Below, piece by piece: positions 32,798-35,419 of a stretch of DNA of 46,799 bases; the stretch's first letter is position 1, and each line of letters opens with the position of its first letter. The notes under the pieces were generated by a model. That model searched no databases. It was not told where the DNA came from and saw nothing but the letters and a program-made list of their open reading frames with translations. The DNA comes from a virus (taxonomy: Duplodnaviria; Heunggongvirae; Uroviricota; Caudoviricetes), in IMG/VR virus record IMGVR_UViG_2703718778_000015. One strand, given 5' to 3'. The position numbers were made by a program, and so were the translations under genes.

Positions 32798-32953
32798 TTA
32801 CTCCTCAGGTTCGTAAACTGTGAAGACAGCGACCTCCGTCTGGCCGGTTCGGATTCGTACCTCGCAGAGGTCTTTCCTCGTTACCAGTGCCGTCACTATG
32901 ACGGTTAAACAGATGACGATCAGGGCGATTAACATCGCCTTTTGCTGCTTCAT
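32798..32953 (-). CDS. hok: Hok-family type I toxin (small membrane peptide)
   Basis: 51 aa, MKQQKAMLIALIVICLTVIVTALVTRKDLCEVRIRTGQTEVAVFTVYEPEE, one residue from HokD/RelF as remembered; strong AAGGAGAAG RBS. Confidence 0.9.
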   Translation of the reverse strand: MKQQKAMLIALIVICLTVIVTALVTRKDLCEVRIRTGQTEVAVFTVYEPEE

Positions 32954-33244
32954 AGCCTGCTTCTCCTTGCCTTTCGGCACGTAAGAGGCTAACCTAGATT
33001 TGCCGTTCATAGATTGAGCCTCAGATTAATGTTAAGCGTCTTGCAGGACGCGTAATGTTAACTGGGGCTTTTCTCTATCTGCCTTTTGGTATTCATGCCT
33101 GAGACAGATAGCCTCAAGCACCCGCAGCAATTCTACTTAACTATCCTTTCCCCGCAAATCGTTTTTATCCCCAGCGACAAATCGAATACACCACCAGCGC
33201 CACCGCCATTGCGATCCCTACCGTTGTGAATGCCTCAGGCCAGG

Positions 33245-33589
33245 TCATCGTAAAACATCCTCTGCGCTTATCAGTCCGTTTCGCTTCAGGTAGTCCATCG
33301 CCTTACCCGGCAATTTACAGTCCGGCTTCGTTTTCCTCAGTTGCCAGGTTAACTGCTTTACCAGCATGGTTAACTCGTCGACCAGACGCTGATGTCCCAC
33401 TGGTTTGTATTCATGCAATTTACCGGCTGGCTCTGCTGCCAGCGATGCCAGTGCGATTTCCAGAACAGCAATATCCATCTTATATGTGCGGATGATGTCA
33501 TGGTCGTTTGTGCCCGGTATGCACAGTCTCTGTGCTTCAATAGTCTCCTCTGCGTGAGCTATTAACTGCTCTCTGGTAAAAGTGGTCAT
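33245..33589 (-). CDS. Hypothetical protein (114 aa), paralogous to the ORF at 34103-34528
   Basis: N-terminal segment [15 protein letters not shown]...[12 protein letters not shown] resembles MTELTKEQLIEEAKL...FKIALTSLEAEP of the neighbouring ORF. Confidence 0.5.
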
Positions 33590-34101
33590 GCCGCGCTTCC
33601 TTCTTGCTTATTAACGATTACACCGTCATATATTTCATTAAGGTGTCCCCTCAACTCCATGCGCCTTAATGCAGACAACATGTAATCGCATTCAACCTGC
33701 TTATTTCCAGTAAATGGCTTATCGTCAGGATCACCCCAACAGCAATTACCCTTGGGCCACCCATGTACTTTCCGTACTCTTCCGTTAACAACGTGAAGTA
33801 ATCCCCAGCCAGGTGGTAAATCCTCAATTGAAATAATTCCCGGCTCACTAATAAAGAATCTCCAGTCGCCCATGCCAAGAGAGGGATTTTTACGGAAACG
33901 CTTTTTTCTATCTGCCAACAAGTCAGCACGAGAACACTTCGCCTCTATCAGGCATGATGCTGAATTTCTGAATCCCATAGCATCTGGTTGTTCTCCAGTA
34001 CTGGTTACAGCAACAAAGCGGTCATGAAAGCAAACCTTGAACCCGTTGCGCTTAAGGAACCTGTACGCAATCTGACAGAGTTCGCGGTGTGTTAACGCCA
34101 T
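33586..34101 (-). CDS. Hypothetical protein with possible PD-(D/E)xK nuclease motif
   Basis: 171 aa; candidate motif ...PDAMGF...CLIEAKCS (D...E-x-K). Weak, motif-only evidence. Confidence 0.4.
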
Positions 34102-34102
34102 C

Positions 34103-34528
34103 TCATTCTCCTTTGATGCGAATGTTTACAACCTGACAAACCTCTTTGAGTACCCAGTCAACAGCGTCTTTCCACGCTCCAGTCTCAACTGGCGGATTCT
34201 CACGTTTTACTTGTTCATAGAAGTGCACAGCTTTAACCAGTCCTTCAGGTACTACAGGCACTGGCGGCATGCGATACAATGGAGTAACACAACGCGAAGC
34301 CTCATATTTATCTGACGGACGCTGAAATATCTCACCGAACCCATATTTTTCAATATCTCGCAGTTCCTCGTCGTCAGTCCATGCCACCGGTTCTGCTTCC
34401 AGCGATGTCAGTGCAATTTTGAATAACTCACCCTCTACTCGTGCCACGCCTGAATTGGGATGGCATTTCGCAATCGCTATTTTTAATTTGGCTTCTTCGA
34501 TTAATTGCTCTTTTGTTAATTCAGTCAT
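34103..34528 (-). CDS. Hypothetical protein (141 aa), paralogous to the ORF at 33245-33589
   Basis: Shared N-terminal module with 33245-33589; C-terminus differs. Confidence 0.5.
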   Translation of the reverse strand: MTELTKEQLIEEAKLKIAIAKCHPNSGVARVEGELFKIALTSLEAEPVAWTDDEELRDIEKYGFGEIFQRPSDKYEASRCVTPLYRMPPVPVVPEGLVKAVHFYEQVKRENPPVETGAWKDAVDWVLKEVCQVVNIRIKGE

Positions 34529-34623
34529 TTTTCATTACCGCTCTTTCGGGCGGCCTCCTGATGTTCTGAGGGTGCAGAAATCCCTCCGGCTAAGGATTAA
34601 ATTTTTAACAGTTCTAAATTTAA

Positions 34624-34980
34624 CTATTCAGTTCTGGATTTTGTCGCCCTGCGTATCCGCGCTTTCGCGTTACGCTCAATCTGAATTAGCTTTTCTATAT
34701 TTTTTCGCCTTTCCCGCTCCTCCTGGCGCAAGTGCCTTACATCATCTGCCAGTCTGGTTTCTCTTTTCGCCACAGAGAGCATCCAGTCAAATGGCTCCAC
34801 AACTGCACCGCAGATTTTACAGCGGACCTGACGCTCTTTTTCGTCAACCAGGACAGAGGCGTGATGACAATATGGTCTTTCCGATGGCTCATAAAGAAAA
34901 TTAACCTGATTACGAGGGTCATCCTCTTTTACCGGAAATAAAACGATATTGCTTAACTCATCCTCTGGTTTTATTTCCAT
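34624..34980 (-). CDS. Hypothetical protein with Cys/His cluster (possible zinc ribbon)
   Basis: 118 aa; CHH...CKICG arrangement; basic C-terminus. Confidence 0.45.
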   Translation of the reverse strand: MEIKPEDELSNIVLFPVKEDDPRNQVNFLYEPSERPYCHHASVLVDEKERQVRCKICGAVVEPFDWMLSVAKRETRLADDVRHLRQEERERRKNIEKLIQIERNAKARIRRATKSRTE

Positions 34981-35419
34981 GCTCCTCTCCTTTGATGCGA
35001 ATGCCAGCGACGCGTAATGCGTGTTCTAGGTCAATCAGGTAAAGCCAACTGCCATTTTCTTTAGGTATCATGACATGTCGCTCATCTGCATTTATCGGGT
35101 GTCCATATCGAAGGTCGTAGCGAGTCGGTAATTGAACTTCCCGCGCTTCCAGTTCAGCAATACGCTTGCTCCCATCAGAGATAACGCCTTCGTAATACTC
35201 ACGCTGCTCGTTGAGTTGTGATTTTGCTTCTTCCAGTCCATCCAGCAAATCAGCGATAATATCCGCTTCCCGATGACGGATGTGACGCTTAAACGCAGCA
35301 AGAGCCGCATCACAATCCCGTTCAGCATTTTGGCTGTCCGGGATAGCCTGATACCACGCCAGCGTCGACTGATAGTTTTGTGCTGCCTCACGAAGCGCCT
35401 CATAGTTAACCTCTCTCAT
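34958..35419 (-). CDS. Hypothetical protein (153 aa)
   Basis: ORF in operon context; predicted coiled-coil centre; no motif recognised. Confidence 0.45.
   Translation of the reverse strand: MREVNYEALREAAQNYQSTLAWYQAIPDSQNAERDCDAALAAFKRHIRHREADIIADLLDGLEEAKSQLNEQREYYEGVISDGSKRIAELEAREVQLPTRYDLRYGHPINADERHVMIPKENGSWLYLIDLEHALRVAGIRIKGEEHGNKTRG

Follow-up and report, generated by a model that had tools for sequence, protein, structure and literature searches.

The pA-pM-pB locus

Within a viral DNA stretch of 46,799 nucleotides (nt; IMG/VR record IMGVR_UViG_2703718778_000015, hereafter the window), we analysed three adjacent minus-strand genes, which we call pA, pM and pB in the order in which they are read (Table 1). 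The genes are co-oriented and tightly packed: a single nucleotide separates the pA stop codon from the pM ATG, and the pM stop codon overlaps the pB ATG (ATGA). Inside the trio, no promoter- or terminator-like site rose above chance, and pM is co-transcribed and translationally coupled with its neighbours in an early operon. The host element is an Escherichia coli lambdoid prophage, and 24 complete E. coli genomes match the 1.6-kb region of the trio at 99.9% identity. In L004, an annotated twin locus (here L numbers denote loci in genomes or contigs and P numbers denote homologous proteins), the genes follow the order replication protein P, DUF1627, DUF977, DUF4406, an Ead/Ea22-like gene, a Zn-ribbon gene, pA, pM, pB, hokD, a small open reading frame (ORF), DUF968, RusA and DUF1133, and a Pfam scan of the window agreed with this order. 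A sequence-only reading of the window had placed paralogous small proteins on either side of a putative PD-(D/E)xK nuclease in the nin region. All three ORFs are present on the minus strand, and "nin region" describes their place fairly, since in L004 and by the Pfam scan the trio has replication protein P on one side and DUF968/RusA on the other. The same reading had proposed that pA and pB serve the nuclease as specificity or adaptor subunits. Our results argue for a different picture, in which pM is probably an autonomous nuclease amid ordinary mosaic genes and pA and pB are not its dedicated partners.

Residues 1-49 of pA aligned with residues 1-56 of pB at 34% identity over 56 residues (BLASTP, E = 3e-5). 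The Smith-Waterman score of this pair was 59, compared to 26.8 ± 4.5 for shuffled sequences (z = 7.1), and none of 5000 shuffles reached 59. The common N-terminal module (N-module) is ~50 amino acids (aa) long, helical, and follows the pattern MTxxTKEQLI...IALxSLEAEP. Both N-termini matched the same PHROGs (phrog_660, 5117, 60 and 3323), and an iterated hidden Markov model (HMM) of the module found exactly two copies in the window, one in pA and one in pB. A tblastn search of phages with the 50-aa module returned four records, a number that reflects a search of too little sensitivity. The shared N-terminus and the differing C-termini of the sequence-only reading were thus upheld: the pairwise alignment is significant, and the C-terminal parts are unrelated. 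At the end of the module, a 31-nt patch encoding IAL(T/A)SL(E/A)AEP was 87% identical between the two genes, and the remainder of the module showed ~55% nucleotide identity. This patch marks the border between the N-module and the variable part. We considered a recent tandem duplication of the module and rejected it, since nucleotide identity outside this single patch is only ~55%.

Table 1. Positions of the genes, modules, catalytic codons, junctions and downstream features in the window
Feature	Position	Strand	Details
pA	34528..34103	minus	141 aa (34103..34528); ORF list
pM	34101..33586	minus	171 aa; ORF list
pB	33589..33245	minus	114 aa; ORF list
pA N-module	34379..34528	minus	aa 1-50, MTELTKEQLIEEAK...FKIALTSLEAEPVAW; BLASTP; module HMM E = 5.5e-20
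pB N-module	33422..33589	minus	aa 1-56; BLASTP; module HMM E = 1.1e-17
Boundary patch, pA	34389..34419	minus	31 nt, encodes KIALTSLEAEP; local DNA alignment and codon identity
Boundary patch, pB	33429..33459	minus	31 nt, counterpart of the pA patch
D40 codon	33982-33984	minus	catalytic motif of pM
E53 codon	33943-33945	minus	catalytic motif of pM
K55 codon	33937-33939	minus	catalytic motif of pM
5' junction	34099..34123	minus	ATT CGC ATC AAA GGA GAA TGA G ATG; general form ...GAR TGA N ATG
3' junction	33568..33609	minus	AAG CAA GAA GGA AGC GCG GCA TGA CC
Hok-family ORF	33010..32798	minus	NCBIfam Hok/HokA matches; hokD in the twin locus
sok	32948-33123	minus-strand module	Rfam RF01794, 112 bits
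Terminator-like hairpin	32729-32712		after the hok/sok module

The nuclease fold and family of pM

The middle gene had been credited with a possible D...E-x-K nuclease motif. This motif proved real: the protein reads GEQPD40 ... E53-A-K55 followed by CSRADLLAD (33937..33984, minus strand), and in alignments of 30, 41 and 108 sequences, D40 was invariant, and E53 and K55 were conserved in 90% or more of 108 homologs reaching down to ~35% identity. E37, P39, H5, S57, R58, D60, D64, K67, R70, G78, R81, W99-G100, E137 and R146-R147 were likewise invariant or at least 90% conserved. A first AlphaFold2 model of pM was mediocre (predicted local distance difference test, pLDDT, 73.7). The model built from the 108-sequence alignment reached a pLDDT of 95.2 and a predicted template modelling score (pTM) of 0.88, and had the alpha-beta-beta-beta-alpha-beta topology canonical for PD-(D/E)xK nucleases, with D40 at the start of beta2 and E53 and K55 on beta3. 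Together with a profile match to 3dnx (see below) and the intact motif, the structure prediction bears out the suggested PD-(D/E)xK fold. A comparison of the window allele with the allele common in E. coli gave a ratio of nonsynonymous to synonymous substitution rates (dN/dS) of ~0.1. These data show pM to be a stand-alone PD-(D/E)xK fold protein with an intact active site under purifying selection, and a putative DNA-cleaving enzyme. Searches of Pfam (at E ≤ 0.1), NCBIfam and PADLOC gave no match to pM, and PHROGs 9263 and 631, to which it belongs, have no annotated function. The pM family is new and unnamed within the known PD-(D/E)xK superfamily.

When pM alone was used as a single-sequence query against the PDB, only noise was returned, and a family profile was required. 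The profile matched 3dnx (E = 2.6e-4), whose segment "...VIECKSSRADFQAD" aligned to pM, with IECKxSRxDFxxD in the alignment. This protein (SPO1766) belongs to the Pfam MmcB-like family PF06319 (E = 2e-31), to which 12 of the 41 pM family members examined gave weak matches (best E = 2.9e-4); the window pM gave nothing against PF06319 at E ≤ 0.1 and did not reach its gathering threshold. Matches of pM in the viral structure library BFVD included proteins named MmcB-like, and pM resembles 3dnx, a solved MmcB-like member, in structure and motif. Weak matches to Hjc (PF01870) were seen with 23 of the 41 members; pM itself had no significant match to the Hjc model or structures. From these comparisons the pM family appears to be sister to the MmcB-like/DUF1052 family, and Hjc-type junction resolvases would be more distant relatives. 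DUF1052/3dnx appears in a survey of the PD-(D/E)xK superfamily (PMC3424549). MmcB has been described as a PD-(D/E)XK endonuclease giving Caulobacter protection from mitomycin C and cisplatin, and the crosslinker-resistance role is known for Caulobacter MmcB only (PMC9578287).

The family is large. Close homologs of pM formed 328 clusters, all labelled "hypothetical", and an exhaustive profile search yielded 3,273 family clusters at 50% identity, mostly single-domain proteins of 150-200 aa. Relatives were found in 641 phage records, including ~157-kb virulent Ackermannviridae and phages of Vibrio and Acinetobacter. Homologs conserved in large virulent phages (records H88-H103; Ackermannviridae, Vibrio, ~157 kb) were 35-46% identical over ~60-70% of pM, and every one was annotated as hypothetical. 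Fusions of the pM domain to other domains were rare, and comprised a TniB-like ATPase (P0136, metagenomic, 428 aa), Ead-type N-termini (P0094 and P0105 from Salmonella, and P0009) and DUF551 (P0217); so small and varied a set gave no consistent hint of function.

Among 5426 complete E. coli genomes, 928 carried pM, with 248 places on plasmids (P1/P7-type). Full-length pB was present in 566 of these genomes and full-length pA DNA in 24, and the complete trio was found in 24, that is, in only 24 of the 928 pM-positive genomes. The three genes assort independently in E. coli. We also noted a RefSeq/PGAP mislabelling of pM in several loci (L004, 6824-7002; L118 and L120-L123, 2124-2302): the 171-aa ORF is intact in all of them, yet only its initial 179 nt are annotated, as a "frameshifted" hypothetical pseudogene, and the C-terminal two thirds carry no annotation. 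The likely source is a reference protein of 58 aa that goes back to O157-type alleles with a true frameshift. In two O157-type prophages (L124 and L125, 1787-2330), pM is a decayed allele, in which a 2-nt deletion leaves ORFs of 68 and 119 aa (L124) or 68 and 111 aa (L125).

Mosaic neighbours and conserved cassette junctions

In pA, the N-module (aa 1-50) leads through a middle part to a C-module (aa ~80-141), and the protein ends in ...NIRIKGE*. It matched positions 3-143 of phrog_660, and its aa 80-141 matched phrog_26213. The C-module was ~90% identical to the C-terminus of a 254-aa Ead-type protein of phage EC.W1-9. In pB, the N-module (aa 1-56) is followed by a different C-module at aa ~67-114, with aa 67-114 matching positions 146-193 of phrog_660. 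Homologs of pB were confined to E. coli/Shigella and were mosaic: many proteins of 160-198 aa share 77-96% identity with just a single half of pB, and DUF551 is present in some relatives. P0333 and P0338 join an N-module nearly identical to that of pA to the C-module of pB (ELTMLVKQL...), and P0331 joins the N-module of pB to DUF551. In one alignment, the N-module was combined with at least three different C-terminal parts, DUF551 among them. Neither pA nor pB gave a usable match in Pfam, NCBIfam or PADLOC, and neither matched PF13935 (Ead_Ea22) at E ≤ 0.1; the neighbouring gene 35419..34958 did match PF13935 (E = 3.5e-12). Phage proteins with the N-module are annotated as "EaA" or "ea22", and Ea22 has been described as a mosaic of a common N-terminal part and unrelated portable C-domains including DUF551 (PMC10834534).

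Because single proteins combine the pA N-module with the pB C-module, and the pA C-module recurs in an Ead-type protein, we regard pA and pB as recombinant siblings. On the sequence comparisons they are assigned as two recombinant members of one hyper-mosaic Ea22/EaA/DUF551-type family of small accessory proteins, whose architecture runs from the N-module across a boundary of the form AEP(V/I)x(W/Y) to a middle that varies and a C-module that can be exchanged. The coverage of phrog_660 had raised the idea that pA and pB are one gene split by insertion of pM; this was rejected, as pA has an Ead-type C-module and pB has a complete N-module of its own.

Lambdoid phages evolve in a modular (mosaic) fashion, by exchange at conserved linker sequences (Botstein/Hendrix-type models), and pM is flanked by junctions of this kind. 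DNA homology of the window to P7, Shiga toxin (Stx) phages, Ss-VASD and EC.W1-9 comprised pM plus ~22 nt of each flanking gene (33568-34124). At the 5' junction, the Shine-Dalgarno (SD) sequence of pM, AAAGGAG, lies within the final codons of pA (IRIKGE*). P7, Ss-VASD, EC.W1-9 and further E. coli loci have identical SD-containing linkers on either side of pM, and the 5' linker also precedes an HNH gene, a Zn-ribbon gene and other unrelated ORFs or cassettes. Within the window, a linker of the same type lies at 34958-35000: the Ead/Ea22-like gene 35419..34958 has ...IRIKGE near its end, and its DNA, ATCAAAGGAGAGGAGCATG, provides the SD and start codon of the overlapping Zn-ribbon gene 34980..34624. 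An empty (nuclease-less) linker would read ...ATCAAAGGAGAnTGAnATGAC... At the 3' junction, the C-terminus of pM (KQEGSAA*) encodes the SD of pB, and the conserved sequence extends into the first ~7 codons of the N-module (MTT/MIT...).

The slot of pM can hold another nuclease. In E. coli FDAARGOS_1371 (L119, 1877-2242), a 121-aa HNH endonuclease (PF01844) follows a pA-like gene in this position. Its 5' (ATCAAAGGAGAnTGAnATGGC) and 3' (CAAGAAGGnnCnnCGGCATGAC) junctions are those of pM, and it ends in ...KYQEGATA*/ATGAC. Both this protein and pM start with MALT and end in QEGxxA. Two further ORFs resemble deletion scars (L117, 2842-3009, 55 aa; L123, 1605-1790, 61 aa), each joining an N-module, at "AEPVV", to the C-terminal 14 residues of the HNH protein (VVFWFEKYQEGATA). 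The conserved ends serve translation initiation and at the same time offer short patches of homology at which cassettes can be exchanged. Such generic linker junctions explain both the "bracketing" of pM and the recurring N-terminus of its neighbours. A description of linkers acting as translation-initiation regions in this gene array was not found in the literature searched.

A Pfam census of the immediate neighbours of pM homologs at 105 non-redundant loci revealed no dominant neighbour family. Upstream, we counted Ead_Ea22 (11), NinB (4), NinX (4), helicases (3) and a few methyltransferases (MTases); downstream, NinG (6), DUF551 (6) and dATP/dGTP pyrophosphohydrolase (3) were followed by NinB, YbcO, RusA, C5-MTase, single-stranded DNA-binding protein (SSB) and others. 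MTases of several types (C5, N6/N4, Dam-like) were seen beside pM homologs from Kluyvera, an Enterobacteriaceae metagenome-assembled genome, Chromohalobacter, Salinicola and Rhodobiaceae (L009, L015, L029, L030 and L034).

Directly downstream of pB in the window lies a hok/sok type I toxin-antitoxin module (32798-33123, minus strand). Upstream of pA, the 95-nt spacer from the Zn-ribbon gene (34529-34623, minus strand) is the one intergenic gap of any size in the array; GC-rich inverted repeats lie within it, as does an AGGAGG ~38 nt upstream of the pA start. The inverted repeats were dismissed as a meaningful structure, as they folded no better than shuffled sequences (z = -0.64) and the spacer sequence was found in the twin locus only.

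Interpretation and comparison with known systems

We favour, as the probable explanation, an autonomous PD-(D/E)xK nuclease that sits among ordinary mosaic genes, with pA and pB not acting as dedicated partners. The segment would then be part of an early, co-transcribed accessory array between the replication genes and DUF968/RusA. pA and pB would be members of the recombinant mosaic family, each with an N-module ending in IALxSLEAEP joined to interchangeable middle and C-terminal modules, and pM would sit at the standard linkers, that is, behind an upstream ...IKGE* end carrying its ribosome-binding site and with its own ...QEGxxA* end overlapping the next ATG. pM itself would be an autonomous Mg2+-dependent DNA endonuclease with D40, E53 and K55 as its catalytic centre, and could cut branched or damaged DNA intermediates in phage replication and recombination, alongside NinB/NinG/RusA-type functions. 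A structure- or damage-specific endonuclease acting on such intermediates is a tentative assignment, which we put forward by analogy because the relatives (MmcB and Hjc) and the NinB, NinG, RusA, YbcO and SSB neighbours of homologs fit it. The arrangement as a whole is an instance of known phage mosaicism.

Several points weigh against this explanation. The activity and substrate of pM, and of the pM family as a whole, are ones that we infer by analogy; the window protein reaches no Pfam or NCBIfam model; the suggested role in recombination or repair draws on distant relatives and a loose neighbourhood; and the prophage is already equipped with RusA and a DUF968/HNH protein. As for the partners, the N-module HMM misses divergent look-alikes, such as the downstream proteins with "...EPVAW" at L008 and L021. 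In the E. coli/Shigella lineage of pM, moreover, the next gene, joined to pM by the ATGA overlap, begins with the N-module in nine of the ten loci sampled. This adjacency could reflect function, as a looser coupling of pM to some N-module protein. The copies of pM in this lineage are 95-97% identical at the nucleotide level, the upstream gene is usually of the Ead/Ea22 type and ends in ...IKGE, and the proteins encoded downstream range from 61 to 432 aa with unrelated C-terminal parts. Since these copies of pM represent a single recent lineage, we read the adjacency as the result of descent and shared linkers.

The recurrence of the N-module behind pM, with varied C-terminal parts, is also how a variable adaptor would look. 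In such an arrangement the paralogous pA and pB would dock onto pM via the N-module, and their different C-termini would direct pM to different targets. The tight packing and translational coupling of the trio, with its 1-nt gap and ATGA overlap, and the rare proteins in which the pM domain is fused to an Ead-type N-terminus or to DUF551 (P0094, P0105, P0009 and P0217) are in keeping with this proposal, which we nevertheless judge very unlikely. At 110 informative loci found with the pM protein alone (30 genome and 80 viral contigs), the N-module HMM had no match within 3 kb in 85, an upper bound because the HMM was built from few sequences; in 13 loci the module was an immediate neighbour on one side or more, and only two (L038 and L039) had it on both. 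pM homologs lack a dominant neighbour family and occur in virulent phages that have no N-module genes. Conversely, pB is found without pM in L117, an N-module gene stands beside the unrelated HNH nuclease in L119, and the conserved junctions also precede non-nuclease cassettes. Added to the rarity of the trio among pM-positive genomes and the recombinant make-up of pA and pB, these counts speak against the specificity- or adaptor-subunit role of the sequence-only reading; the co-occurrence analysis of the trio revealed no conserved association of the nuclease with the putative subunits.

The alternation of pM with an HNH protein suggests another alternative, namely that both are free-standing, homing-type selfish endonuclease cassettes, which would cut the conserved SD-containing linker of nuclease-less Ea22/EaA arrays and be carried into it as the break is repaired by recombination. 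In its favour, a single slot with one set of 5' and 3' junctions is used by two small nucleases, PD-(D/E)xK and HNH, that are unrelated. The DNA of pM is 95-97% identical across P1/P7-type plasmid prophages, Stx phages and lambdoid nin and ea regions, with homology ending ~20 nt into each flank; its distribution is sporadic (928 of 5426 genomes); and apparent decay products exist as frameshifted pM (L124 and L125) and HNH scars fused to N-modules (L117 and L123). On the other hand, the pM family is large and ancient, with a conserved single domain of ~165 aa found also in virulent phages and a dN/dS of ~0.1, and pM has no extra DNA-recognition domain. No clean pair of empty and filled sites with otherwise identical flanks was found: the slot holds pM, HNH or neither with shared junctions, and the flanks beyond ~20 nt differ too. 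Non-nuclease cassettes in the same arrays are equally sporadic and linker-bounded, and ordinary modular recombination therefore suffices to account for the pattern. We consider homing of this kind unlikely. Somewhat more doubtful still is a role for pM in degrading host or competing-phage DNA, possibly in a restriction-modification-like system with a phage MTase. It would suit the place of pM in an accessory region next to a hok/sok module, and DNA MTases adjoin pM homologs in ~7 of the 105 loci, a frequency that may be no higher than chance gives in phage early regions. Such adjacency is rare and involves different MTase classes, however; pM had no PADLOC match; and its closest relatives by sequence and fold are MmcB-like proteins and Hjc, not restriction enzymes. 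Under lytic-early control, pM would be silent in the lysogen and is therefore poorly placed for exclusion.

The preferred explanation, of an autonomous nuclease among mosaic genes, provides a confident fold and active-site assignment for a large family without a Pfam, NCBIfam or PHROG function. It also annotates a very common hypothetical protein of E. coli, the intact gene of which is often mislabelled in RefSeq as a frameshifted fragment. The apparent pair of paralogs around a nuclease is accounted for as a product of linker-mediated cassette exchange, which advises caution in reading such arrangements as multi-subunit systems. As two unrelated nucleases alternate at one linker-defined slot, a contribution of nucleases to lambdoid mosaicism is testable. 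If homing did take place, nuclease breaks at the linkers would actively drive the shuffling of early-region cassettes in enterobacterial temperate phages; the spread of pM among unrelated phages, and mosaicism around it, would be promoted.

Among known nucleases, pM is most like the MmcB-like/DUF1052 proteins, with which it shares the PD-(D/E)xK core, the extended motif PD...(I/V)ECKxSRxDFxxD, a similar size and a single-domain build. It differs from them in an extra conserved region (GMGDWRF, WGLL and a C-terminal helix with SALRR) and in being phage-borne. The gene for MmcB proper is chromosomal, under SOS regulation and found mostly in alpha-proteobacteria (PMC9578287, PMC3424549), whereas the gene for pM lies in a phage early operon. 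Archaeal Hjc (PF01870; 1hh1 and 1ob8) is likewise a small PD-(D/E)xK nuclease with D-x13-E-x-K spacing, and its "IPDIIA...ILIEMKS" aligns with the pM motif; the glutamate of the first helix of Hjc is not conserved in pM.

In their construction, pA and pB resemble Ea22/Ead/EaA/DUF551-type proteins (PF13935 and PF04448), which combine a common N-terminal part with portable C-terminal domains (PMC10834534), and like them they are placed in phage early accessory arrays. Their N-module, MTxxTKEQLI...IALxSLEAEP, differs from the Ead N-terminus (xIDYQALREAA...), and they lie in the nin-equivalent region, unlike Ea22-type proteins of the exo-xis region. As in classic modular exchange among lambdoid phages, the cassette borders coincide with gene borders to within ~20 nt, and the same short linkers flank alternative cassettes, here pM, HNH and Zn-ribbon. 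The array goes beyond the classic picture in that its linkers are legible as translation-initiation regions within the last codons of the preceding gene (IKGE* and QEGxxA*).

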